DNA from: Candidatus Wirthbacteria bacterium CG2_30_54_11
Lineage (GTDB): Bacteria > Patescibacteriota > CG2-30-54-11
DNA length: 23,040 bases
NCBI GenBank assembly: GCA_001873755.1
Contig: MNZT01000096.1
Location: 1-23,040 of the forward strand
Direction: 5' to 3'
Position 1 is the stretch's first letter. Every line of letters starts with the position of its first letter. The position numbers and the translations under genes are program-made. Positions 4,923-16,501 of this stretch are shown here, piece by piece. Under the pieces are notes generated by a model. That model worked only from the letters and a program-made list of their open reading frames with translations, did not search any database and was not told where the DNA came from.

Positions 4923-5963
4923 ATGGTCGGTATCATAGGCTACGGCGCATACATCCCGAAGTATCGTATCAAGGCAGAGGAGATCGCGGCGATCTGGGGG
5001 CAGGATCCCAGGCGCATCATCGAAGGCCTTCGCATTCAGGAGAAGTCTGTGCCCGGACTGGACGAAGACAGCGCGACCATGGGTATCGAGGCCAGCCGCA
5101 ATGCACTCGCCGTGGCCGGGATCGATGCTTCGACCATAGGAGCGGTTTACAGCGGTTCCGAGTCCAAGGTCTATGCGGTCAAGCCCAATGCCACCATGAT
5201 CGGAGACGCACTTGGCATCGGCCATAAATATAAGGCGGCAGATGTCGAGTTTGCCTGCAAGGCCGGTACCGCGACCATGCAGATGGTCGTTGCCGAGGTG
5301 GAGAGCGGGATGATCGACTGCGGTTTGGCGGTTGGCATGGATACGGCACAAGGGCGACCGGGCGATGCACTTGAGTACAGCGCGGCGGCTGGCGGGGCAG
5401 CGTTCCTCATCGGCAGCGACGAAAAAAAGATCCTGGCAAAACTTGAGGCTACCTGTTCGTCCTCGTCAGACACTCCTGACTTCTGGCGCCGTCAGAAGGA
5501 GGAATATCCGGTACATCGGGAGCGCTTTTCCGGCAAACCGAGCTACGAGGCGCAGATCGCCCTGTCCGTCGGCATGCTGCTTGAGCGCTTGAAGCTCAAG
5601 CCTGCGGATTTTGACCGGGCGGTGTTCCACACGCCCAACGGGAAATTTCCCCTGGCCATCGGAAAAAAGCTGGGTTTTACCATGAAACAGATGGAGGCCG
5701 GCTACATCGTCCCGGTGGTGGGCAATACCTATTCCGGCGCTTCGCTTCTGGGACTGGCGGCGACGCTGGATGCTGCCGGTTCTGGTGAACGCATTCTGGT
5801 CGCTTCGTATGGCTCGGGCGCCGGTAGTGATGCTTTCAGCTTTGTGACCACTCCCCAGCTGAAAAAGCGCCGGGACCGGGCGCCTCAGGTCCGAAACTAT
5901 ATCGATCACAAACAGTATCTGTCCTACGGCCAATATATCAGACACACAGGACATCTGGGATGA
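4923..5963 (+). CDS. Hydroxymethylglutaryl-CoA synthase, archaeal type (about 350 aa, UPF0219 family)
   Basis: 346 aa. The N-terminus is MVGIIGYGAYIPKYRIKAEEIA. The catalytic triad context is intact by eye: GSE(80)SKVYAVKP, EFAC(112)KAGT and VFH(236)TPNGKFP. Thiolase-like and DUF35 partners lie downstream. Confidence 0.85.
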   Translation: MVGIIGYGAYIPKYRIKAEEIAAIWGQDPRRIIEGLRIQEKSVPGLDEDSATMGIEASRNALAVAGIDASTIGAVYSGSESKVYAVKPNATMIGDALGIGHKYKAADVEFACKAGTATMQMVVAEVESGMIDCGLAVGMDTAQGRPGDALEYSAAAGGAAFLIGSDEKKILAKLEATCSSSSDTPDFWRRQKEEYPVHRERFSGKPSYEAQIALSVGMLLERLKLKPADFDRAVFHTPNGKFPLAIGKKLGFTMKQMEAGYIVPVVGNTYSGASLLGLAATLDAAGSGERILVASYGSGAGSDAFSFVTTPQLKKRRDRAPQVRNYIDHKQYLSYGQYIRHTGHLG

Positions 5964-6877
5964 CCACCCGCACCCTGCCGAAACATTTCCAGCTCCTCCC
6001 GAACGAGCAGCTGGTGGAAATTGTCCACCCCCACTGGTTCGCTTTTTATCGCACCTATGCCGTCTGGGCTTTGATCATAGCTGCGGGCGTAGTGCTGTTT
6101 TCGTGCCGAGAGGTGGTGGCATCAGTATTTCCATCTTCCCATCTCGATCTCCCGTTCAGTATTATCAACGGCCTCCTTTCGACCAACGGGTCTCTTCAGA
6201 TCAGCTACGATCTGCTGTCCAGATCGGCTCTCGACGGCCTGATCCTGGTGACCGCCTGGTGGTATGTACTGATCTTGATGGGAGCGTTCGTGGCTCTGGC
6301 CAAGGTAAACGGAGGATGGATGCTCGTTTTCCTCGCGATCGGCAGTCTGAGCACTGCCGCCGGGGTGCTCACCGGCTTCCCGACCTGGACTCCACTGTTC
6401 GGAGCAGCGCTGTGTTTCGCAGGTATGGTGATGACTGACCGGTACCGCCGGTCTCACTATTTCATCATCACCGATCTCAGGCTCATTCTGTATGTAGATT
6501 TTTTCCACCTGCAGGAACGAGACCTTCTCCTGAGCAGACTGAGCGATCTCGCTATCGACCAGACGCTGGTCGGACGGCTGTTTGATTTCGGGACCTTGAT
6601 CCCGATTTCCCTTTCTGGTTTCGGCATGGGAGCAGATATGTCCATGGTGGGCGTGGGAGCGCAGGCAGGTCCGCTGTCTGTGACGGGAGCTCTGGGGACC
6701 AGTGTCGGAGTCCCTCGTGCGAGAAGCCCTCATGTATTGTTCGGGGTGCCTGATCCACATGCCGTTCATGCCATACTGGAAAAGCTGATTTATACCAATT
6801 CCGAGGTCAAGCATCTACAGACCATCACCGACGAGTTGAAGAATATGAAATTTCTAACGACAAATGAATCCAAATAG
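5960..6877 (+). CDS. Membrane protein with bacterial PH domain (bPH_2 / YdbS-YdbT-like, DUF304)
   Basis: 305 aa. It has an LLPNEQLVEIVHPHW entry motif, then about 4 TM helices, then YFIITDLRLILY...LSDLAIDQTLVGRLFDFGTLI...FGVPDPHAVHAILEKLI, typical of bPH_2. The ATGA overlap with the HMGCS stop suggests translational coupling. Confidence 0.6.
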   Translation: MTTRTLPKHFQLLPNEQLVEIVHPHWFAFYRTYAVWALIIAAGVVLFSCREVVASVFPSSHLDLPFSIINGLLSTNGSLQISYDLLSRSALDGLILVTAWWYVLILMGAFVALAKVNGGWMLVFLAIGSLSTAAGVLTGFPTWTPLFGAALCFAGMVMTDRYRRSHYFIITDLRLILYVDFFHLQERDLLLSRLSDLAIDQTLVGRLFDFGTLIPISLSGFGMGADMSMVGVGAQAGPLSVTGALGTSVGVPRARSPHVLFGVPDPHAVHAILEKLIYTNSEVKHLQTITDELKNMKFLTTNESK

Positions 6878-6906: not shown

Positions 6907-8058
6907 ATGGATGTCAGAGTAGCCGCCACCGGCGGAGTCAGATATGGAGAGCTGTGGACCCTGGGTATCGGGGATCTCATGCGCGCAGCCGCAGCAGATG
7001 TCCTGAAGAATTTTGATGGGGATATGAAGGATATCGATACGCTCGTCCTTTCGAACTGCTTTGCCGGGAGGGCTCTGGGTATCCACACCCTGATTCCCCT
7101 GGCGTACGATGAGCTTGGTTTCCGCGGGCGGATCTTTGAGGTGACCGGCTCGGATGCCACGGGCGGATTTGCCGTGCAGCGGGCAGCCATACTGATCGAG
7201 AGTGGAGTCGCGCAGCGGGTCCTGGTACTGGGGGTCGAAAAGATCGGCGATCTGCTCGCCTCTCAGGTGCAGTCGGCGCTTTCTTCCCTCCTGGGCTCGG
7301 AGCAAGTGTTCCAGGGGCAGACCCTCGCTTCTGACTATGCGCTCATGGCTCGGCAGTACATGGAAACGTACGGGGTGACACTTCGGGACCTCGCACTCAT
7401 CAGTGTGAAAAATCATGCGAACGCCTCACTCAATCCCATGGCCCAGTTTCCTTTTCCTTTGACCGTGGAGCAGGCGGCAGAAAGCCAGGAGATCGCAAGT
7501 CCGCTGAGGGCTCTGGATGCTGCCTCGATCTGTGATGGAGCTTCAGCCCTGATCCTCGAAAAGCCGGGGAAGAATTCCTCGCCGGTCAGCATCGTCGGAC
7601 TGGGCGAAGGGCGCGACCTCCCGGGGCTTCATGACCGGAAAGATCTCACCTCTCTGGCCGCGACCCGGGAAGCGGCACAAATGGCGTACGAGGCCGCAGG
7701 GGTGAGTCCACAGGAGATCGATGTCGCGGAAGTACATGATGTCTATTCCATAGCCGAGCTGATGGCTATCGAGGATCTTGGTTTTGCCAGACCCGGTCAG
7801 GCCAAAACCTGGGTGCGCAAAGGCAGGACGGCCCTCGGGGGCGATCTGCCGGTCAACCCTTCGGGCGGATTGAAAGCGTGCGGTCATGCACCCGGTGCCA
7901 CTGGCGTCAGGCAGGCGGCAGAGATAGCTGTCCAACTAAGCGCTTCAGCCGGCAAGCGGCAGGTGGCAGACGCTTCTGTCGGTCTCAGTCACTCAGTCGG
8001 TGGCAATGGCAGTCAGTGTGCGGTCACCATATTTCGTACTATAGCCATACGAGGATAA
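6907..8058 (+). CDS. Thiolase-superfamily protein (SCP-x / archaeal acetoacetyl-CoA thiolase-like) lacking the nucleophilic Cys (Asp83)
   Basis: 383 aa. LGVEKIGD, NPSGGLKACGHAPGATG and HSVGGNGSQCAVTIF match thiolase C-terminal signatures. The expected xxACASGG segment reads TGSD(83)ATGG (GAT at 7153-7155). Confidence 0.8.
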   Translation: MDVRVAATGGVRYGELWTLGIGDLMRAAAADVLKNFDGDMKDIDTLVLSNCFAGRALGIHTLIPLAYDELGFRGRIFEVTGSDATGGFAVQRAAILIESGVAQRVLVLGVEKIGDLLASQVQSALSSLLGSEQVFQGQTLASDYALMARQYMETYGVTLRDLALISVKNHANASLNPMAQFPFPLTVEQAAESQEIASPLRALDAASICDGASALILEKPGKNSSPVSIVGLGEGRDLPGLHDRKDLTSLAATREAAQMAYEAAGVSPQEIDVAEVHDVYSIAELMAIEDLGFARPGQAKTWVRKGRTALGGDLPVNPSGGLKACGHAPGATGVRQAAEIAVQLSASAGKRQVADASVGLSHSVGGNGSQCAVTIFRTIAIRG

Positions 8059-8060
8059 CC

Positions 8061-8519
8061 ATGAGAGATAATGTCCCTGATTCCTGGCGTCGTCAGAGCG
8101 ATCATGTGATCCCGGTCTCGAGTCACTGCCGCCACTGCCGGGAGACGTTCATCCACGAACGGCATGCCTGTCCCCGTTGCGGGCGGGGCACTATGACGGT
8201 CAAGCCTGCGAGTACGGCGGGGGTCGTCGAATCCTGGACCGAGATTTTTGATCCGCCGGAGGAATTTCACCGGATGCGGCCGTATATCATAGGACTCATC
8301 CGGCTTGATGACGGGGCCCGGCTTTCAGCTCCGATCGTTGACGTCGAGAGCGGGATGCTCGTGAAGGGCATGAGAGTGGAAGCCGTGGTGAGAAAAGTGT
8401 ATGTGCAGGGACAGGATGGTCTGATAGAATATGGGACAAAATATCGGCCTTCCATGAAAGTTATCAAAGAATCAAAGCCGCCCTCTGGGGCGAGCCTCGC
8501 TAAAAGCGGGAAGCAATAA
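8061..8519 (+). CDS. DUF35 protein (Zn-ribbon plus OB-fold; thiolase/HMGCS scaffold family)
   Basis: 152 aa. The Zn-ribbon is C-x2-C-x11-C-x2-C (CRHCRETFIHERHACPRCG), followed by an OB-fold-like YIIGLIRLDDGARLSAPIVDV...GMRVEAV. The ATG lies 2 nt after the thiolase stop, with GAGGA upstream. Confidence 0.8.
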   Translation: MRDNVPDSWRRQSDHVIPVSSHCRHCRETFIHERHACPRCGRGTMTVKPASTAGVVESWTEIFDPPEEFHRMRPYIIGLIRLDDGARLSAPIVDVESGMLVKGMRVEAVVRKVYVQGQDGLIEYGTKYRPSMKVIKESKPPSGASLAKSGKQ

Positions 8520-8523
8520 ATCA

Positions 8524-9402
8524 ATGGTCAAAAAGACGGATACGAAGATCATATCGATCAAAAAGGCGGTCTCCTGGATCAAGGACGGGATGACGGTTGC
8601 TCTGGGTGAATTTTCCTACCAGAATCTGCCGATGGAAGTGGTCAGGGAGATCATCCGTACACGGAAAAAGGATCTGACGATCATCTCCGGCCCTACTTCC
8701 GGTCTGGCCACTGATATGCTGATTTCCGCCGGATGCGTGAGTCGGGTGGTGACCGCCGGGGTCGGGTTTGAGGATGTTGCCGGAATCGCCCCGGGTTTCC
8801 GCTCGGCCTGTGAGAGGGGGACGCTAGAGGTCTGGGAGTGTGATGAGTGCATGTGGCAGGCAGGTCTGGAGGCCGCTGCCCGGGGACAGCCGTTCGCACT
8901 CTGGCAGGGGGGCATCGGCTCTGATATTCCTTCCTTGAATCCTTCTATTCATCTCGTCGTGGTCAGCCCCGCAGGCGAGGTAAAACGGGTCAGATCCCTT
9001 GGGAATGCGGCCCGGAGGGCCAAAGCTACCGGGGGCCAGATCTTTCTTCAGATACCGCCGATAGTACCGGATATCACGTTCATCCACGCGGCTACTGCCG
9101 ATGAGCTCGGGTTTGTCCAATATCCACAGAAGCGGTATCTGGGCAGAGTATTCAATGAAAAACTGCTCAGCGAAGCGACCCGGGGGCCGGTGATCGCGAC
9201 GGTAGAGAAGATAGTTTCTCATGAGCAGATCATGAAGCATCCGGAGCTGACGGTCATTCGGAACGCCTGGGTGGCCCAGGCGCCCCGGGGCGCCTGGCCG
9301 GGAGGCTGCAACGGGGTCTATCCGCCTGACCTGAAGGCGTACCGGGCGTATGTGCGCAGTGGCGGTGATGTACATTTATTCCTGGGAGAGGGAACAGTAT
9401 GA
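8524..9402 (+). CDS. Family-I CoA-transferase alpha-subunit-like protein (GctA/AibA-like), pair 1
   Basis: 292 aa. IISIKKAVSWIKDGMTVALGEFSYQNLPMEVVREIIRTRKKDLTIIS is the typical N-terminal fold of glutaconate/3-oxoacid CoA-transferase A subunits. Confidence 0.75.
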   Translation: MVKKTDTKIISIKKAVSWIKDGMTVALGEFSYQNLPMEVVREIIRTRKKDLTIISGPTSGLATDMLISAGCVSRVVTAGVGFEDVAGIAPGFRSACERGTLEVWECDECMWQAGLEAAARGQPFALWQGGIGSDIPSLNPSIHLVVVSPAGEVKRVRSLGNAARRAKATGGQIFLQIPPIVPDITFIHAATADELGFVQYPQKRYLGRVFNEKLLSEATRGPVIATVEKIVSHEQIMKHPELTVIRNAWVAQAPRGAWPGGCNGVYPPDLKAYRAYVRSGGDVHLFLGEGTV

Positions 9403-10043
9403 CGCAGGTTTCCATGATCAAGGTCAACAAGAAGGCCAAAAAAGTATACCGGCAGGAAGTTCTCCATCGCGGACTTTTTGGGGTGCTTCTGGTCGTGGCG
9501 CTGGCCGTCGGGGTTGTCGCGGGCGGGTTTTTCTTTCCTGCGGTTCGCACGGCCAGCAGCCTGGAGCCGGATACTCCTGGAGACAGGTCCGCGATATCCG
9601 CGGCAGAACGATCTGCCGATCAGCAGAGCGATGAAACTGAAGCCACTTTTTTGTCCGTCGATGCTTCTCCGCCTCCGGCGGCAGAGGCTCCGGTTCCTGC
9701 CCCGGTAGAAGAACAGCCGGCCACCACGATCACTGAAACTACCGACCCGGCTGATATCAGCATGATCATTCTCAACGGTTCCGGGATCGACGGTGAAGCC
9801 GGCAGATTTGCCGAATACGCAGAAGGTAAAGGTGTATCCGTGGTCGGAACCGCGAACGCCAGGCAGTGGGACCATGAAGAGACAGAGATCTATTTTTCGG
9901 AAGATAATGCGGAAAAAGCAAAACTGGTCATGGAGCTGCTGGGCAAGCAATATCCCTGGATCATGTATACAGAAGCGCTCGACGGCAGGGATGCCGACAT
10001 AGTGATTGTCCTTGGTACTACTTCTCCTTTGCAGGGTTCCTGA
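9399..10043 (+). CDS. Membrane-anchored LytR_C-domain protein
   Basis: 214 aa. It has an N-terminal basic stretch and one TM helix (GLFGVLLVVALAVGVVAGGFFF), a Pro/Ala/Glu-rich linker, and a C-terminal ISMIILNGSGIDGEAGRFAEYAEGKGVSVV...DADIVIVLG (LytR_C signature). ATGA overlaps the upstream stop and TGATG overlaps the downstream start. Confidence 0.7.
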   Translation: MTQVSMIKVNKKAKKVYRQEVLHRGLFGVLLVVALAVGVVAGGFFFPAVRTASSLEPDTPGDRSAISAAERSADQQSDETEATFLSVDASPPPAAEAPVPAPVEEQPATTITETTDPADISMIILNGSGIDGEAGRFAEYAEGKGVSVVGTANARQWDHEETEIYFSEDNAEKAKLVMELLGKQYPWIMYTEALDGRDADIVIVLGTTSPLQGS

Positions 10044-10849
10044 TGAGCAAGAATTATTCTACAGCGCAACTGATGACCTGCGTGATCGCCCGGGATCTCT
10101 CTGACAGCGACCGGGTGGCTTTTGGCCTGCATGCCGGTATTGGCCTGGGTGCAGCTCTGCTCGCCCAGAAGCTGCACGCTCCGCATCTGCAGATACGGCA
10201 TGGTCTGCACGAATCCCTGAAGCCTGCTCTCAGCCCCTCGGCGTGGACGGCAGAGAAAAGGACGGAGAGCCGGGTATCCTATTTTGAATCTCATGATGAA
10301 ATGCTGCTCTGGGGCAACCCGACCGGTAGTCAGACCTTTTCCAGCGTCTTTTTCATCAGTGGTCTGCAGATCGACCGGTACGGCGCGACCAATCTGGTGG
10401 GCATCAGGAACCAAGCTTCGAAACCACACATCTGGCTGGTCCGGGGACCCGGCAGCATCGGTACTCCGTCGGCAGCCTGGTTCTGTGCCAAATACTATCT
10501 GTTCTCTTTTTGCCACGATCTCCGCACATTTGTGCCCAAGGTAGACGTAGTGTCTGTGCCCGGTACTGATCGTCTGCGCGCTCTGGGTTACCCAAAGAAA
10601 TTTCCCCGTCTGTGCATCACTCCCCTGGGGGTTTTCGGCTGGGACAATGCCGAAGGAACCATGAAGATCATATCGCTTCATCCCGGAGTTACGATTGACG
10701 AAGTTCAGGAACGGACAGGATTTGAGCTCGTCCGTCCGGATCGGGTGAGAACCACAGAGATTCCTTCATCGGCTGAGCAGAAGGCACTTAAGGAGATTGA
10801 TCCCAAAGGTGAGATTTTTAAGCTCGATAGCACAATGCTGAGGGATTGA
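10043..10849 (+). CDS. Family-I CoA-transferase beta-subunit-like protein (GctB/AibB-like), pair 1
   Basis: 268 aa. STAQLMTCVIARDLSDSDRVAFGLHAGIGLGAALLAQKLHAP, FFISGLQIDRYGATNL and VDVVSVPG align by eye with GctB. The canonical Glu register (Ala of the 'AP' dipeptide +8) is Gly54, with Glu57 three residues later. Confidence 0.7.
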   Translation: MSKNYSTAQLMTCVIARDLSDSDRVAFGLHAGIGLGAALLAQKLHAPHLQIRHGLHESLKPALSPSAWTAEKRTESRVSYFESHDEMLLWGNPTGSQTFSSVFFISGLQIDRYGATNLVGIRNQASKPHIWLVRGPGSIGTPSAAWFCAKYYLFSFCHDLRTFVPKVDVVSVPGTDRLRALGYPKKFPRLCITPLGVFGWDNAEGTMKIISLHPGVTIDEVQERTGFELVRPDRVRTTEIPSSAEQKALKEIDPKGEIFKLDSTMLRD

Positions 10850-10851
10850 CC

Positions 10852-11601
10852 ATGACTACCATCATCACCTTGAAAGATATAGCTGATCTGATACCGGCCG
10901 GATCCCGTCTGATATGCGGTGGTTTTCAGGCCAACCGGGCTCCGGTCGGTCTCGTGCAGGCTTTGCTCGACGGCCCACCCGGTCAGTTCGCGCTTACCGC
11001 ACTGCCCAACCCGGTGCCGACCGACATGCTGCTTCGTGGTGACAGATTGTCTCTGCTTGATACAAGTTTCAATGGACTGGAGCTTTCGGACGGCTTCCAC
11101 TCCTCAGCCGGCTTTCGCCACGCCATAGAATGTACGAACATCGGTTGGAAAGAGAGCGATGTGTACGAGATCATCCAGGGAATGCGTGCGGCGGCCATGG
11201 GGCTGCCCTTCATACCGGCACCTGAGATAGCGGGTTCTCAGTATACGGAGAGTCAATATCACCGTATTCATCGCGTGGTCGACCCGTTCCATGGCGGGGA
11301 AAGTGTTTTTGCGGTTCCACCCTTGAACCCTGACGTGGCGCTTCTCCATGTGCAAAAGGCTGACCGTAACGGCAACCTCTGGATCGAGGATCCGCTCTAT
11401 GATGAGATCATTCTGCAGGCGAGCCGTCTGACGATCGTGAGCTGCGAAGAACTTGTCGACAGTATCGACCGGCCAACCATCAGTGGACTGTTCGTGGATC
11501 ATGTTCTGGCGATCAAAAACGGGGCGGCGCCGACCGGTTGCCGGGGGTATTACGGACCGGATGAGAAACGCCTGCAAGAGATCCTGGGAGGTACGCGATG
11601 A
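10852..11601 (+). CDS. Family-I CoA-transferase alpha-subunit-like protein (GctA/AibA-like), pair 2
   Basis: 249 aa from the ATG at 10852; the ORF track uses TTG at 10846, which overlaps the upstream stop. ITLKDIADLIPAGSRLICGGFQANRAPVGLVQALL and ALLHVQKADRNGNL are typical alpha-subunit segments. Confidence 0.75.
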   Translation: MTTIITLKDIADLIPAGSRLICGGFQANRAPVGLVQALLDGPPGQFALTALPNPVPTDMLLRGDRLSLLDTSFNGLELSDGFHSSAGFRHAIECTNIGWKESDVYEIIQGMRAAAMGLPFIPAPEIAGSQYTESQYHRIHRVVDPFHGGESVFAVPPLNPDVALLHVQKADRNGNLWIEDPLYDEIILQASRLTIVSCEELVDSIDRPTISGLFVDHVLAIKNGAAPTGCRGYYGPDEKRLQEILGGTR

Positions 11602-12314
11602 ATCCTCGAGACAAGATGATCTCGTATCTGGCCGGTTTGATCCGGGATGGCGACCTCGTCTCCACCGGGGTGGCTTCGCTCATCCCTTTTCTGGCGGTCG
11701 CTCTGGCGAAGCGGACATACGCTCCTGCGAGCAGGTTCATCACCTGCAGCGGAGCGGTGGATCCGGTTTTTGAGCAGGCAGGCCTGTCCTCTGACGACAG
11801 CTCCACTTTTTCGTCCTGGTCTTCCTTCGTTCCTTTGCCTTCACTCTTTGACCTCGGGGTCCGTGGCGGCATCGATGTCATGTTCTTTTCCGGGGCACAG
11901 ATCGACCAGAGTGGCAGGATCAACCTCACTTCGATAGGTGATTATCTCAAACCCAAGGTCAAGTTGCCAGGTCCGGCTGGCTCCACAGTGATGCTCCGCC
12001 GGGTGCAGCGGCCGGTCCTGTTCACGCTGCAGCACACGACGCGGACGCTGGTTGCGGAGGTTGATTTCGTGACCGCAGACGGCTGCGCGACCAGAGACAG
12101 CATCGAGCTGGTGACGGAGCTCGGTGTGCTGACGCTTCGGAAGGATGCTCCGGCAGTGATGACCGCCCGGTTCAGTGATCTGTCAGAACAGGAGATACAG
12201 GAAAGGACCGCTTTCCCTCTTGTTTTTCAGAACCGAGAGGCGAGGGAGCAGGATATTCACACCAATACTGCTATACTGAACGAGCTGGACCCTGAGGGCC
12301 GCAGGTATCATTGA
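11598..12314 (+). CDS. Family-I CoA-transferase beta-subunit-like protein (GctB/AibB-like), pair 2, with Cys in place of the catalytic Glu
   Basis: 238 aa. MISYLAGLIRDGDLVSTGVASLIPFLAVALAKRTYAPASRFITC(50)SGAVD corresponds to (V/S)E(S/N)G in bona fide transferases. FFSGAQIDQSGRINLTSIGDY is the conserved beta-subunit segment. ATGA overlaps the upstream stop. Confidence 0.75.
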   Translation: MNPRDKMISYLAGLIRDGDLVSTGVASLIPFLAVALAKRTYAPASRFITCSGAVDPVFEQAGLSSDDSSTFSSWSSFVPLPSLFDLGVRGGIDVMFFSGAQIDQSGRINLTSIGDYLKPKVKLPGPAGSTVMLRRVQRPVLFTLQHTTRTLVAEVDFVTADGCATRDSIELVTELGVLTLRKDAPAVMTARFSDLSEQEIQERTAFPLVFQNREAREQDIHTNTAILNELDPEGRRYH

Positions 12315-12343
12315 GGACAAGTTTCCTAGAGGGGAGTCGTACG

Positions 12344-13894
12344 ATGAGATCAACGGTGAAACCATTCAAAAAGATTCTGATCATCAACCGCGGCGAAATC
12401 GCTGTGCGGGCCATCCGGGCCTGCCGGGAGCTCGGGATCTCGGTCGGGGTCATCTATAGCCGCGCTGATGTTCACTCCCTGCCGGTCAAGCTGGCGGATG
12501 AGGCTTTTTTCATGGAGGGCGAGAGCGACATCAGCGCCTATCTCGACCAGCAGAAGATCGTCGATGTCGCCAGGACTCATCGGTATGATGCGGTCTATCC
12601 CGGGTATGGCTTTCTGGCTGAGAATTCTTCTTTTGCTGCTCTGTGTGCGGAGCGGGGGATCGCCTTCATCGGACCGTCTGCTGCGGTGCTTCATTCACTG
12701 GGAGACAAAGTCGAGGCTAAACGAATCGCCCGTAAAGTCGGTGCGCCGCTCGTGCCAGGAGAGGACAGGGAGGTTCCCGATGACAAGGATGCCAGGGATA
12801 GCGCCCGGAAGATCGGATATCCGATTGTCGTAAAAGCCTCCGGCGGCGGTGGTGGGCGCGGGATTCGAGTGGTGATGAAGGAGGCTTTTCTTCTGAAAAG
12901 CGTGAAGGAAGCCCAGAGAGAAGCCAAACTGGCTTTTCATAATCCCGGCGTCTATATCGAAAAATTCATCGAAAATCCGCGTCATGTGGAATTCCAAATT
13001 CTGGGTGATCGCTACGGCAACGTCATCCATCTGGGCGAACGTGACTGCTCGGTTCAGCGCCGTCACCAGAAGCTGATCGAGGAAGCACCGTCTACCGTAC
13101 TGACCGAGGAAATGCGGCAGAAGATAGGAGCGTATGCCATCGCCATGGCTCGTGAAGTCGGACTGGTCGGCGTAGCCACGGTGGAATTCCTCGTGGATCG
13201 TCAGCAGAATTACTTTTTCATCGAGGTCAATCCGCGTATCCAGGTGGAGCACGGAGTGACCGAACTCATCTGCGGCATCGATCTGGTGAAGTGGCAGATC
13301 AGGGTCGCGCAGGGCGAGAAGCTTTCCCTTCGTCAGAAGGATATCGTGCTCCGAGGCCACGCCATCGAGTGCCGCATCAATTCAGAAGATCCCTTATCCG
13401 AATTTGCGGTCTCCACGGGCGTGATCGAACAGTACCTGCCGCCCGGAGGGACAGGTGTTCGGGTCTGCGGCGGGATCTTTGTCGGTCAGGAAGTATCCTC
13501 CCAGTTCGATACGCTCCTTTTGAAACTGATGGTCTGGGACGAAACGAGAGCAAAGGCGATCGAACGCATGAGGCGAGCCCTGGGAGAATGCATCATCGAA
13601 GGGGTCAAGACGACGCTGCCGTTCCATCGGACGGTCATGGACAACCGGAATTTTCAGAAAGGCGACGTGGATACGGATTTCATCCCCAAGAACAAGATCA
13701 GTCTCCAGATCAGGAAGAACGCCGAAAAGATGAGGCAGCCCAGCCTGCTGAACGACCAGGTCGAATCCATCCGGTATCGGGAGATCGCGCTCATCGCCGC
13801 GTCGGTCTACAAAAACCTGAAACGAGAAATGGGTACCGCGGGCAATGGCGGGTCGAACGCCTGGGTCACCTCGGCGCGTAAGGATCAAATGTAG
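12344..13894 (+). CDS. accC: Biotin carboxylase (ATP-grasp) subunit of an acyl-CoA carboxylase, long archaeal-like form
   Basis: 516 aa from the ATG at 12344, with GGGGAG 7 nt upstream; the track's TTG at 12311 is less likely. FKKILIINRGEIAVRAIRACRELGI, GYPIVVKASGGGGGRGIRVV and FIEVNPRIQVEHGVTE are canonical biotin-carboxylase motifs. A roughly 65-aa C-terminal extension lies beyond the usual AccC end. Confidence 0.9.
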   Translation: MRSTVKPFKKILIINRGEIAVRAIRACRELGISVGVIYSRADVHSLPVKLADEAFFMEGESDISAYLDQQKIVDVARTHRYDAVYPGYGFLAENSSFAALCAERGIAFIGPSAAVLHSLGDKVEAKRIARKVGAPLVPGEDREVPDDKDARDSARKIGYPIVVKASGGGGGRGIRVVMKEAFLLKSVKEAQREAKLAFHNPGVYIEKFIENPRHVEFQILGDRYGNVIHLGERDCSVQRRHQKLIEEAPSTVLTEEMRQKIGAYAIAMAREVGLVGVATVEFLVDRQQNYFFIEVNPRIQVEHGVTELICGIDLVKWQIRVAQGEKLSLRQKDIVLRGHAIECRINSEDPLSEFAVSTGVIEQYLPPGGTGVRVCGGIFVGQEVSSQFDTLLLKLMVWDETRAKAIERMRRALGECIIEGVKTTLPFHRTVMDNRNFQKGDVDTDFIPKNKISLQIRKNAEKMRQPSLLNDQVESIRYREIALIAASVYKNLKREMGTAGNGGSNAWVTSARKDQM

Positions 13895-13901
13895 GTACAG
13901 C

Positions 13902-14543
13902 ATGACCACTGAAGCCAAGTCAAATCGTCGGATCGCGATTCTCGGTGGAGCTTACAATCCTCCGACTATTGCCTATGAAAAAATTGTGAGAGCTGTGCTC
14001 CAGAAGGATGCGGCGCAGGAAGTGTGGCTGATGCCCTATCAGGAGCGCGCATTTGGTAAATTCATGGCCGCCACCGCACAGCAGCGGTTCCGCATGGCTG
14101 AGCTCCTGGCTGGTCAGATCGGCGACCGGGTCAGGGCGTCTGAGGCCGAGATCGCAAGACAAGGGAAAAGCTACACCATCGATACGGTGCGTGAGCTGAA
14201 GAGACTGTATCCGGACTGCGAGTTCTGCTGGATCATCGGTACTGACCTCCTCTATGAGCTTTCGGACTGGAAAGATATCGAGGCACTTACCACGGAAGTC
14301 ACTTTTCTGGGCGTGCTCAGGCCGGGCTACCCGGTCAATGCACAGCTGGTGGACCGTTACCGCGTGCAGCTGCTGCTGGGACCCCGCCTCATGCCGGACG
14401 TATCCGCTTCTCTCGTGCGCCAGAGACTCGCTGCAGGCAAGAACATGCAGGGGCTGGTTCCCGAAGTGATTGAGCGTTATATTGAAGCAGAAAGACTGTA
14501 TCAACCCCAGACAGATCCTACCAGTGTTCAAAAGGAGGAGTGA
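13902..14543 (+). CDS. NadD-like nucleotidyltransferase (nicotinate-nucleotide adenylyltransferase family) with a degenerate (H/T)xGH motif
   Basis: 213 aa. RIAILGGAYNPPTIAYEKI aligns with the NadD motif GGTFDPPHxGH, giving HxGH -> TIAY. SYTIDTV, IIGTDLLYELSDW and the ISxTxxR-like VSASLVRQR are retained. Confidence 0.65.
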   Translation: MTTEAKSNRRIAILGGAYNPPTIAYEKIVRAVLQKDAAQEVWLMPYQERAFGKFMAATAQQRFRMAELLAGQIGDRVRASEAEIARQGKSYTIDTVRELKRLYPDCEFCWIIGTDLLYELSDWKDIEALTTEVTFLGVLRPGYPVNAQLVDRYRVQLLLGPRLMPDVSASLVRQRLAAGKNMQGLVPEVIERYIEAERLYQPQTDPTSVQKEE

Positions 14544-16075
14544 TGAAAGATAAGATCGAGATCCTGAAAAAACGTCGGGTGGCGCTCTCTGACAGCAAAC
14601 GGACAGAATCCCAGCACGAGAAAGGCAGATTGACCGCGCGTGAACGCATCCTCATGCTGGTGGACAAGGAGAGCTTTGTAGAACTGGACCCCTATGTGCA
14701 GCTGCGGAGCCACAATTTCAACCTGCAGGAAAAGAAGACCGACGGGGATGGGGTTGTGACCGGCTACGGCAGGGTCAACGGCCGCAAGGTCGCCATCTAT
14801 GCCCAGGATGCGACGGCCATGGGCGGCAGCCTCGGGGAGATGCATGCGGCCAAAATCGCCCAGGTCCAGGATATGGCAATCAGCTGTGGCTGTCCTATCA
14901 TCGGCATCATCGACAGCGGCGGCGCCCGCATCCAGGAGGGAGTCAACAGCCTCGACGGCTATGCCGAGGTGTTCAACCGCAATGTCCGCTCCAGCGGCGT
15001 GGTCCCTCAGATCGCCGTCATCGTCGGCCCTTCGGCCGGCGGCGCCTGCTATTCCCCGGCGCTTATGGACTTCATCTTCATGGTGAAGGATCTGAGTTAT
15101 ATGTTCATCACCGGTCCCCAGGTGATCAAACTGGTCACCAGTGAGGAGATCGATTTCGAGGGACTCGGCGGCGCCATGGTGCACAACCAGAAGAGCGGGG
15201 TGGCGCATTTCGCCATGGCCAACGAAGAAGGCTGCTTCCATTTCGTGAAAAAGCTTCTCCGCTATCTGCCATCCAACAATCTGGAAGACCCGCCCCGGGT
15301 GCCGAGCGAAGATCCCGCTGACCGGTTGTGCGACCGGATACTGGATCTCGTACCGGCCGACTCTACCAAGTCCTACGAGATGAAGGATGTCATCGAGGAG
15401 ATCGTCGACCGGGATTCTTTCTTCGGTCTGCAGAAGTTCTATGCCCGGAACGTGATCATCGGGCTTGCCCGGCTGGATGGATTTCCGGTCGGCATCGTAG
15501 CCAATCAGCCCAAGATCCTCGCCGGCTGCCTCGATATCGACGCCTCGGACAAGATCGCCCGGTTCGTCACCTTCTGCGATGCGTTCAATATCCCAGTGGT
15601 CAACCTAGTTGATGTTCCCGGGTATCTTCCGGGCGTCAATCAAGAGCATCAGGGCATCATCCGCCACGGGGCCAAAATTCTCTATGCGTACGCCGCATCT
15701 ACCATTCCCAAGATATCGGTAGTTCTGCGCAAGTCGTACGGCGGGGCCTACATCGCGCTCTCGTCGAAGAAGATGGGCTACGATCAGGTCATCGCCTGGC
15801 CGACGGCGGAGCTCGCGGTCATGGGAGCGGAGCAGGCAGTCGATATCGTGTACGGCCGCGAGCTGAGCGAGAAGAAGAGCAAACGGCTCAGAGCCAGAAA
15901 GATCGAGGAATACCGTGAAAAATTCATGAATCCCTATACTGCTGCCCAGATGGGTCAGGTCGATATGATCATCGACCCGAGGGAGACCAGAAAGACCCTG
16001 ATCTCCAGCCTTTCCTTCCTCCGCACCAAACGCGTCCCCAAGGTCAGCCGCAAACACGGTTCCATGCCGGTCTAG
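14543..16075 (+). CDS. Acyl-CoA carboxylase carboxyltransferase subunit (PccB / MmdA / MccB family; substrate not assignable by eye)
   Basis: 510 aa from the ATG at 14543, with TGATG overlap and AAGGAGGAG upstream. QHEKGRLTARERILMLVDKESFVELD, IIDSGGARIQEG and AYAASTIPKISVVLRKSYGGAYIAL are hallmark carboxyltransferase segments. Confidence 0.88.
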   Translation: MKDKIEILKKRRVALSDSKRTESQHEKGRLTARERILMLVDKESFVELDPYVQLRSHNFNLQEKKTDGDGVVTGYGRVNGRKVAIYAQDATAMGGSLGEMHAAKIAQVQDMAISCGCPIIGIIDSGGARIQEGVNSLDGYAEVFNRNVRSSGVVPQIAVIVGPSAGGACYSPALMDFIFMVKDLSYMFITGPQVIKLVTSEEIDFEGLGGAMVHNQKSGVAHFAMANEEGCFHFVKKLLRYLPSNNLEDPPRVPSEDPADRLCDRILDLVPADSTKSYEMKDVIEEIVDRDSFFGLQKFYARNVIIGLARLDGFPVGIVANQPKILAGCLDIDASDKIARFVTFCDAFNIPVVNLVDVPGYLPGVNQEHQGIIRHGAKILYAYAASTIPKISVVLRKSYGGAYIALSSKKMGYDQVIAWPTAELAVMGAEQAVDIVYGRELSEKKSKRLRARKIEEYREKFMNPYTAAQMGQVDMIIDPRETRKTLISSLSFLRTKRVPKVSRKHGSMPV

Positions 16076-16087
16076 TACAGGTGGTCT

Positions 16088-16501
16088 ATGGCTTCGGACA
16101 GAACTACCAAGATCAATATCATCTTGAAAGAAACCAAGCATACGATCCGTTTTGTGGAAAACGGGCCGCAAGAGCTACTGGTGGGTATCGATGGTGCGAC
16201 CGTGCCGGTGGACCTGGACCGCATGGTCTCATCTCAGGATATTGAGAACCGATTTGAGCATGATGACGAGTTCGAGGAGGAGGGAAGTGAATCGAAAGTG
16301 ATATCCCCGATCCCCGGAGTGGTCACCAGTATATTTGTGAAAGAGGGAGACGAGGTTCAGTCAGGGCAGCCCCTGTGCATGATCCTGGCCATGAAGATGG
16401 AAAATGAAATTACAAGTCCGAGGACCGGGGCGATCAGGCAGGTCGGTATCCAGTCAGGACAATCAGTCATGAGCGGTCATATACTTTTCGAATTTGTCTA
16501 G
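16088..16501 (+). CDS. Biotin carboxyl carrier protein (biotinyl domain)
   Basis: 137 aa. The C-terminal biotinyl domain carries the attachment motif in PLCMILAMKMENEITSP (AMKM). An acidic linker (EHDDEFEEEGSES) precedes it. Confidence 0.85.
   Translation: MASDRTTKINIILKETKHTIRFVENGPQELLVGIDGATVPVDLDRMVSSQDIENRFEHDDEFEEEGSESKVISPIPGVVTSIFVKEGDEVQSGQPLCMILAMKMENEITSPRTGAIRQVGIQSGQSVMSGHILFEFV

Follow-up and report, generated by a model that had tools for sequence, protein, structure and literature searches.

A candidate 3-hydroxy-3-methylglutaryl-CoA dehydratase of the CoA-transferase fold, encoded next to an AibA/AibB-type pair in a Wirthbacteria operon

What do two tandem coenzyme A (CoA)-transferase-like pairs do when neither carries the catalytic glutamate of that family? 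The question is raised by a 23,040-nucleotide stretch of Candidatus Wirthbacteria bacterium CG2_30_54_11 (contig MNZT01000096.1, positions 1 to 23,040; hereafter the window), which encodes two such α/β pairs, pair 1 (α1 and β1) and pair 2 (α2 and β2). A first-pass annotation had proposed that both β subunits lack the glutamate, and that at least one of the pairs is not a transferase but a decarboxylase-type or other enzyme. Both proposals hold. Pair 2 is assigned, as an orthologue, to the AibA/AibB-type decarboxylases. Pair 1 is a non-transferase, constitutes a separate family, and is associated with the same pathway. We give roughly even odds (about 0.5) to pair 1 being a CoA-transferase-fold dehydratase of 3-hydroxy-3-methylglutaryl-CoA (HMG-CoA), that is, a 3-methylglutaconyl-CoA hydratase, in a variant operon of alternative isovaleryl-CoA biosynthesis (AIB). 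The range first annotated, 10043-12314, correctly takes in β1 and pair 2 but misses α1, which lies upstream of it. The four subunit genes are:

8524-9402, + strand: α1, 292 residues; Pfam CoA_trans, E 3e-19
10043-10849, + strand: β1, 268 residues; PDB sequence matches and an AlphaFold2 (AF2) model
10846-11601, + strand: α2, AibA-type; PDB 5mzw_A, E 1.9e-46, residues 9-246
11598-12314, + strand: β2, AibB-type; PDB 5mzw_D, E 5e-37

The Pfam family PF01144 (CoA_trans) matches α1, α2, and β2. β1 has no match in Pfam or NCBIfam, and is assigned to the fold by its PDB matches and by AF2 and Foldseek.

Read codon by codon, β1 runs P47-H-L-Q-I-R52-H53-G54-L-H-E57, with Gly54 encoded by ggt at 10202-10204, and β2 runs A-P-A-S-R-F-I-T-C50-S-G, with Cys50 encoded by TGC at 11745-11747. 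In a MAFFT alignment with the PDB sequences of GctB, AibB, and IpdB, the catalytic Glu54 of GctB shares a column with Cys56 of Myxococcus xanthus AibB, Cys50 of β2, the glycine of IpdB, and Gly54 of β1. Alignment of the β1 family profile with the AibB family profile by hhalign has no gap at the catalytic site and gives Gly54 the same register. A pairwise phmmer alignment had placed Arg52 opposite GctB Glu54 by means of a two-residue gap; this register is superseded by the MAFFT and hhalign results. None of the three alignments puts an acidic residue at the catalytic-glutamate site of β1. The first-pass annotation had also considered that Glu57 (gaa, 10211-10213) might be the catalytic residue if a three-residue insertion is allowed. 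Glu57 occurs in just 2 of 118 close homologues, which rules out such a shift. In 85 of the 118 homologues, position 58 is a glutamate; neither the archaeal members nor the window have one there.

In family-I CoA-transferases, as described for glutaconate CoA-transferase (GCT), the β-subunit glutamate carries the acyl/CoA group (PMC5380842). Both pairs have the fold of this family, and neither has the glutamate of the β-subunit (S/V)E(N/S)G motif. On another contig of the genome (C71:2547-3830, L005/L006), a 473-residue open frame encodes a canonical, fused family-I CoA-transferase whose ETENG motif is intact. This protein is an internal positive control for a working enzyme, and loss of the glutamate is therefore specific to the two pairs. 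Family-I CoA-transferases are usually annotated from fold alone. The database label 'glutaconate CoA-transferase', which both pairs carry, is almost certainly wrong.

Pair 2 has a characterized counterpart in the M. xanthus decarboxylase AibA/AibB. α2 matches AibA over its whole length. In the phmmer alignment of β2 with AibB, Cys50 falls on Cys56, and the variant entries 5n00-5n03 (with C56A, C56S, C56V, and C56N in their titles) differ at exactly this cysteine. The cysteine is invariant in the AibB alignment (A3). In AibB, Cys56B stands where glutaconate CoA-transferases have their conserved catalytic glutamate (PMC7756340), in line with the first-pass annotation. Asp66 of β2 (11793-11795) occupies the position of AibB Glu72B, the proposed ultimate proton source (PMC7756340). 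In a maximum-likelihood tree, β2 and M. xanthus AibB form one clade, with a support of 94 in the Shimodaira-Hasegawa-like approximate likelihood-ratio test (SH-aLRT). By orthology and by the Cys-for-Glu swap, pair 2 (10846-12314) is a predicted AibA/AibB-type 3-methylglutaconyl-CoA decarboxylase, the activity being that of the characterized M. xanthus enzyme. Pairs of this kind are already explained by published work.

Pair 1 has a different active site. The α1 motif W104-E105-C106-D107-E108 (WECDE), in which Glu108 is encoded by gag at 8845-8847, is present in all 30 tier-1 sequences, and in the β1 motif I51-R52-H53-G54-L55 (10193-10207), RHGL is found in 118 of 118 close homologues and the preceding Ile51 in 117. 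The position of Glu108 is occupied by Gly or Val in AibA, by Gln in GctA, and by Val in α2 (hhalign of the α1 family against α2). The PDB sequences 6co6_A and 6coj_A, by contrast, differ by a single Glu-to-Ala change at the position that aligns with Glu108, and the Foldseek listing gives 6coj the title 'IpdAB E105A COCHEA-CoA complex'. The AF2 model of α1 (pLDDT 89.8) is closest to IpdA, with TM scores of 0.80-0.82 and an E value of about 1e-22, followed by GctA and AibA at about 1e-19. The AF2 model of β1 (pLDDT 85.8) gives TM scores of 0.73-0.78 to AibB, GctB, and IpdB, and the matches of β1 to PDB sequences are weak, with comparable E values (IpdB, 1e-12; GctB, 4.5e-11; AibB, 2e-8). Both subunits were modelled singly. 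Pair 1 keeps the CoA-binding glycine-rich segments GGMQID and RGPGSIG.

In IpdAB, which has the CoA-transferase fold, Gly57 of IpdB occupies the β-glutamate site, and no transfer of CoA was seen among the short-chain acyl substrates assayed (PMC5380842). Instead, the enzyme hydrolyses a ring of COCHEA-CoA, a cyclohexene-carboxyl-CoA (PMC5380842, PMC6678751). Judged from its sequence, pair 1 has an IpdAB-style layout, with a glycine at the β-glutamate site and a conserved α-glutamate, and is not an IpdAB orthologue.

The family of pair 1 crosses domains. A search of 5.8 billion proteins returned more than 100 homologues of β1 at 41-71% identity, from Woesearchaeota, Nanoarchaeia, Polarisedimenticolia, and other bacteria. 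The clade is compact, because in an exhaustive hidden Markov model search of 1.8 billion representatives the scores fall sharply, from at least 233 bits to at most 204 bits, after about five representatives. In the maximum-likelihood tree, the pair 1 clade has an SH-aLRT support of 100%, and AibB and GctB are placed elsewhere. Within the clade, 44 positions of the β subunit and 42 of the α subunit are invariant. Among these are WECDE and RHGL, which occupy the two active-site positions known for the fold and form the signature of the clade. In an Acidobacteriota bin, α1 and β1 are naturally fused into a single chain through a linker rich in Pro and Ala, about 35 residues long (L057:9104-10546; the contig ends at β1 residue 182); α1 and β1 therefore make one enzyme. 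We found no description of a pair 1-type enzyme, of the clade, or of the two-pair operon in the literature.

The sister of the pair 1 clade (support 98%), tier 2, comprises various other pairs that lack the glutamate, at 31-38% identity. The position of IpdB in this tree is unreliable, its sequence being partial and its branch long. Tier 2 was considered as a set of IpdAB orthologues, and this was ruled out: its members are nearer to GctB (about 1e-31) than to IpdB (about 1e-14). Tier 2 pairs (L045-L090) come from Actinomycetota, Pseudomonadota, Rokubacteria, and others, have no β-glutamate, mostly have WE.DE(G) on the α subunit, and often lie near thiolase, DUF35, and crotonase genes. In a Myxococcota locus (L051), DUF35, HMG-CoA synthase (HMGCS), and thiolase genes stand immediately upstream of a tier 2 pair. 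Metagenome loci, several of them from hot springs (L149, L156-L173), encode an AibB-like β subunit (29-42% identity) with an α subunit nearer to α1 than to AibA, and have no HMGCS gene nearby.

Two Woesearchaeota β1 proteins are the sole members of the pair 1 clade without the Arg-His of the motif (L019:743-1597, KINVGN; L028:9965-10786, VINAGN). Their α1 partners retain WECDE. The AibB of L019 has Ser for Cys, and L028 has no HMGCS, thiolase, or DUF35 gene within 9 kb upstream.

The pathway association of pair 1 is apparent from its neighbours. In the window, both pairs lie in a run of + strand genes, most of which overlap the next by 1-4 bp. Besides the four subunit genes, the run contains:

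4923-5963, + strand: archaeal-type HMGCS, the first committed enzyme of the cluster; Pfam ACP_syn_III_C and Thiolase_N
5960-6877, + strand: membrane protein
6907-8058, + strand: thiolase-like partner of HMGCS and DUF35, with Asp in place of the acyl-accepting Cys; Pfam Thiolase_C_1 and Thiolase_N
8070-8519, + strand: DUF35/OB-fold zinc-ribbon protein, scaffold of the thiolase/HMGCS complex; Pfam OB_ChsH2_C and zf-ChsH2
9399-10043, + strand: LytR_C membrane-anchored protein, between α1 and β1; Pfam LytR_C
12311-16501, + strand: co-transcribed biotin carboxylase, NadD-like protein, carboxyltransferase, and biotin carboxyl carrier protein, genomic context; Pfam and NCBIfam

We collected 80 loci from species-representative genomes, which fall into two groups. 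Those at 41% identity to β1 or above, 37 in all, come from Wirthbacteria-like bacteria, Woesearchaeota/Nanoarchaeia, Acidobacteriota, and one Binatia bin, and share the order HMGCS, thiolase, DUF35, α1, β1, AibA/AibB, with AibA and AibB often fused. Among the loci with enough flanking sequence, α1 is present in 32 of 32, HMGCS, thiolase, and DUF35 lie upstream in 26 of 27, and AibA/AibB lies downstream of pair 1 in 32 of 32. Two tandem non-canonical pairs, which had seemed unusual from the window, are therefore the rule for the clade. Compared with the HMGCS proteins that precede pair 1 in related loci, that of the window shows 49-54% identity. The steroid ring-degradation context of IpdAB (EchA20, IpdC, FadA6, and the KstR2 regulon) is replaced around pair 1 by HMGCS, thiolase, DUF35, and AibAB. 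The Acidobacteriota operon begins with a TetR regulator gene and ends with a zinc-alcohol dehydrogenase (ADH)-type gene, whose counterparts in the AIB operon of M. xanthus are aibR and aibC, respectively (PMC5389471). In the Woesearchaeota operon, an NMO/FabK-like reductase gene and lipid genes follow.

A further 80 metagenome loci, collected with an AibB profile, reveal two versions of the operon. About 34 loci have TetR-HMGCS-thiolase-DUF35-α1-β1-AibAB-AibC, and eight have TetR-HMGCS-thiolase-DUF35-AibAB-AibC, so that the two versions differ in the pair 1 cassette only. (In the shorter version, AibAB is fused, and MsrAB follows in two loci.) Neither version in these loci contains a crotonase gene. 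The M. xanthus pathway consists of MvaS, the dehydratase LiuC, AibA/B, and AibC, with LiuC encoded outside the operon (PMC5389471). Thus, HMG-CoA dehydration is the sole pathway step encoded by no operon version, and pair 1 is the sole enzyme without an assigned step. The proposal that pair 1 is the HMG-CoA dehydratase draws on this gap and on the absence of a crotonase-family gene (ECH_1) from 10 of 12 small carrier genomes.

On this proposal, the operon would lead from acetyl-CoA through HMG-CoA and 3-methylglutaconyl-CoA to 3,3-dimethylacrylyl-CoA, a variant of the AIB route in which two paralogous CoA-transferase-fold heterodimers would run consecutive non-transfer steps. Pair 1 (8524-9402 and 10043-10849) would make 3-methylglutaconyl-CoA from HMG-CoA. 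By analogy with IpdA Glu105, α-Glu108 would be the general acid/base that removes water from, or adds water to, the β,β-disubstituted acyl-CoA, and Arg52 and His53 of β1 would hold the free carboxylate of the substrate. Pair 2 would then decarboxylate 3-methylglutaconyl-CoA. In AibB, the substrate carboxylate is reported to lie in an apolar pocket (PMC7756340), which would favour loss of CO2. There is an even chance, in our estimate, that pair 1 represents a third non-transferase activity of the fold, dehydrating HMG-CoA by means of the α-glutamate and the β Arg-His.

Several observations weigh against the dehydratase proposal. Operons without pair 1 exist, and the pair is hence not indispensable to the gene set. 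A dehydratase may act in trans: the window genome (1.44 Mb, 87% complete) has one crotonase gene, near genes for HMG-CoA reductase and a FabG-like protein (C92:719-3449), and each of the eight crotonase-free archaeal carriers has a FabA-like dehydratase. Both ends of the pathway are uncertain in the window organism, because no AibC-type (zinc dehydrogenase) reductase was found in its genome and the cluster thiolase has Asp for Cys. The comparison with IpdAB has limits as well. Pair 1 and IpdAB are just 20-26% identical, the sister clade of pair 1 is tier 2 and not IpdB, and the β1 model stands equally near to AibB, GctB, and IpdB. The presumed catalytic role of IpdA Glu105 is read from PDB entry titles and sequences, and the predicted proximity of α-Glu108 to the RHG loop of β1 is drawn from homologous structures.

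The genome-wide absence of a crotonase was considered as strong proof of the dehydratase assignment, and rejected as such. The two small carrier genomes that do encode a crotonase are those in which the β1 motif no longer has Arg-His (INVGN and INAGN). In one of them (G011), the crotonase gene lies in an ordinary thiolase-crotonase-Hbd cluster. Because of this context and of the FabA-like dehydratases in eight archaea, we give crotonase absence little weight. In the window genome, neither a MaoC nor a FabA-like gene was found at 87% completeness, and the single acyl-CoA dehydrogenase (ACAD) gene belongs to an ACAD-EtfB-EtfA operon (C11, L095:4442-7772).

Four other explanations of pair 1 were weighed against the dehydratase proposal. 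Pair 1 may catalyse another step of the same pathway, such as E/Z isomerization of 3-methylglutaconyl-CoA or double-bond isomerization of the decarboxylation product, or may be an accessory or channelling partner that passes HMG-CoA on to AibAB from the complex of HMGCS, thiolase, and DUF35. We regard this as a possibility well short of even odds. Strict synteny binds pair 1 to the pathway on this explanation too, operons without pair 1 are otherwise complete save for the dehydratase, as expected for an accessory function, and most carriers have a possible dehydratase in trans (the crotonase of the window genome, the FabA-like proteins of the eight archaea). However, the reconstituted M. xanthus pathway needs no extra step, and the required step that goes unencoded is dehydration (PMC5389471). 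In addition, more than 40 invariant residues per subunit, both known catalytic positions among them, argue for real chemistry. The same conservation bears on the idea that pair 1 has lost catalysis and persists as a structural or regulatory paralogue of AibAB, which we consider improbable. Loss of the canonical glutamate, the dispensability of pair 1 in some operons, and the further loss of Arg-His in the two Woesearchaeota members would all fit a dead paralogue. Pseudoenzymes normally relax their active-site positions. Within the pair 1 clade, on the other hand, identity stays at 41% or above from bacteria to archaea, and the invariant positions, 44 in β and 42 in α, include WECDE and RHGL.

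It is also unlikely, if slightly less so than a dead paralogue, that pair 1 remains a CoA-transferase, working through another nucleophile, for example α-Glu108, and activates acetoacetate, HMG, or 3-methylglutaconate. The fold and the CoA-binding segments are kept, and with the Asp-for-Cys thiolase of the window genome and the DPANN archaea, acetoacetyl-CoA from elsewhere could be needed. Yet acidobacterial operons with a normal Cys thiolase carry pair 1 too, the genome already has its canonical ETENG transferase, the acyl/CoA carrier of family I is the β-glutamate, and IpdAB, with the same α-Glu/β-Gly layout, did not pass CoA from one to another of the short-chain acyl substrates assayed (PMC5380842). 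The explanation to which we give least credence is a catabolic cluster for leucine or isovalerate breakdown, in which the biotin carboxylase system would be a methylcrotonyl-CoA carboxylase and pair 1 would be a 3-methylglutaconyl-CoA hydratase. It draws on the single strand block with a 2-oxoacid:ferredoxin oxidoreductase upstream and biotin carboxylase, carboxyltransferase, and carrier protein downstream, and on the ACAD-EtfBA operon elsewhere in the genome. In such a cluster, however, the AibAB decarboxylase would reverse an ATP-dependent carboxylation. Moreover, the best match of the carboxyltransferase is of the propionyl-/acetyl-CoA type (mmdA family), the cluster encodes HMG-CoA synthase and not the lyase, and the Acidobacteriota operon lacks the carboxylase and has an AibC reductase and TetR, like the biosynthetic AIB operon. 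A separate idea, that isovaleryl-CoA feeds leucine synthesis through the upstream 2-oxoacid:ferredoxin oxidoreductase, was set aside as not needed; LeuA-like and LeuB-like genes lie on another contig.

The remaining genes of the locus vary between lineages. The LytR_C gene between α1 and β1, whose stop and start codons overlap those of its neighbours, is found only in Wirthbacteria-like loci (the window, L011, L012, and L097), and α1 and β1 are directly adjacent in loci outside this lineage. In the same three related loci, biotin carboxylase and carboxyltransferase genes also follow AibB, which is not the case in Acidobacteriota. BioY is likewise among the genes from 12311 onward. In Woesearchaeota, the biotin carboxylase gene stands on the other strand, upstream of the cluster and together with a biotin ligase gene (L001:1-1936), and the Acidobacteriota operons have none. 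Where the cluster thiolase of the window reads GSDATGG, its acidobacterial counterparts have AACASGG in the alignment. This Asp-for-Cys thiolase, upstream of DUF35, is shared by the window and by DPANN archaeal clusters (L013-L018, L024, and L032), and the DPANN loci have one or two additional Cys-containing thiolases nearby. Together, biotin carboxylase and the Cys-less thiolase may indicate entry of malonyl-CoA at the front of the pathway in Wirthbacteria-like and Woesearchaeota lineages.

If pair 1 is indeed an HMG-CoA dehydratase, the operon would be a self-contained route from acetyl-CoA to isovaleryl-CoA. This would account for a possible supply of iso-branched lipid starters in Acidobacteriota and some DPANN archaea, and isovaleryl-CoA synthesis would be possible in DPANN archaea and bacteria resembling the candidate phyla radiation (CPR) that have no crotonase. 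The fold would gain a new reaction type, beside the AibAB decarboxylase and the IpdAB hydrolase, and engineered HMG-CoA routes to prenol or isovalerate would gain a crotonase-independent part.

Among known systems, the prototype of both pairs in fold and subunit organization is GctAB of Acidaminococcus fermentans (PDB 1POI; TM 0.77-0.78), which differs in having its catalytic Glu54 in a VESG motif, where both window pairs have no glutamate. Pair 2 resembles M. xanthus AibA/AibB (PDB 5MZW-5N03) in heterodimer layout, in about 35-40% full-length identity, in Cys50 as the equivalent of Cys56, and in the acidic residue at the Glu72B position; in many relatives of the window operon, unlike in M. 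xanthus, the two subunits are fused. The window operon and the M. xanthus AIB operon both encode an HMG-CoA synthase, and relatives of the window operon carry the TetR regulator and the zinc-ADH-type AibC. In contrast, the window uses the archaeal-type HMGCS/thiolase/DUF35 module where M. xanthus uses MvaS, its genome has no AibC or AibR, and its operon adds pair 1, which the M. xanthus operon does not contain.

For pair 1 itself, the closest likeness is to IpdAB of Rhodococcus jostii RHA1 and Mycobacterium tuberculosis (PDB 6CO6, 6CO9, 6COJ, and 6CON), another non-transferase of the fold, whose substrate is a β,β-disubstituted enoyl-CoA with a free carboxylate. β Gly57 of IpdAB corresponds to Gly54 of pair 1, the conserved IpdA Glu105 corresponds to α-Glu108, and IpdA is the top structural match of the α1 model. 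The two differ in that RHGL is specific to pair 1, IpdB having LLTDG there, and in that the reaction proposed for pair 1 would be hydration/dehydration only, with no C-C cleavage. In reaction and in position within the AIB pathway, the proposed pair 1 activity matches the LiuC/AUH-type 3-methylglutaconyl-CoA hydratases of the crotonase superfamily, whose fold is unrelated to that of pair 1, so that the likeness is functional and not one of family membership. If the proposal is true, the sequence of dehydration and decarboxylation by pair 1 and pair 2 would have a fold-independent parallel in the ECH1/ECH2 crotonase pair of polyketide β-branching.

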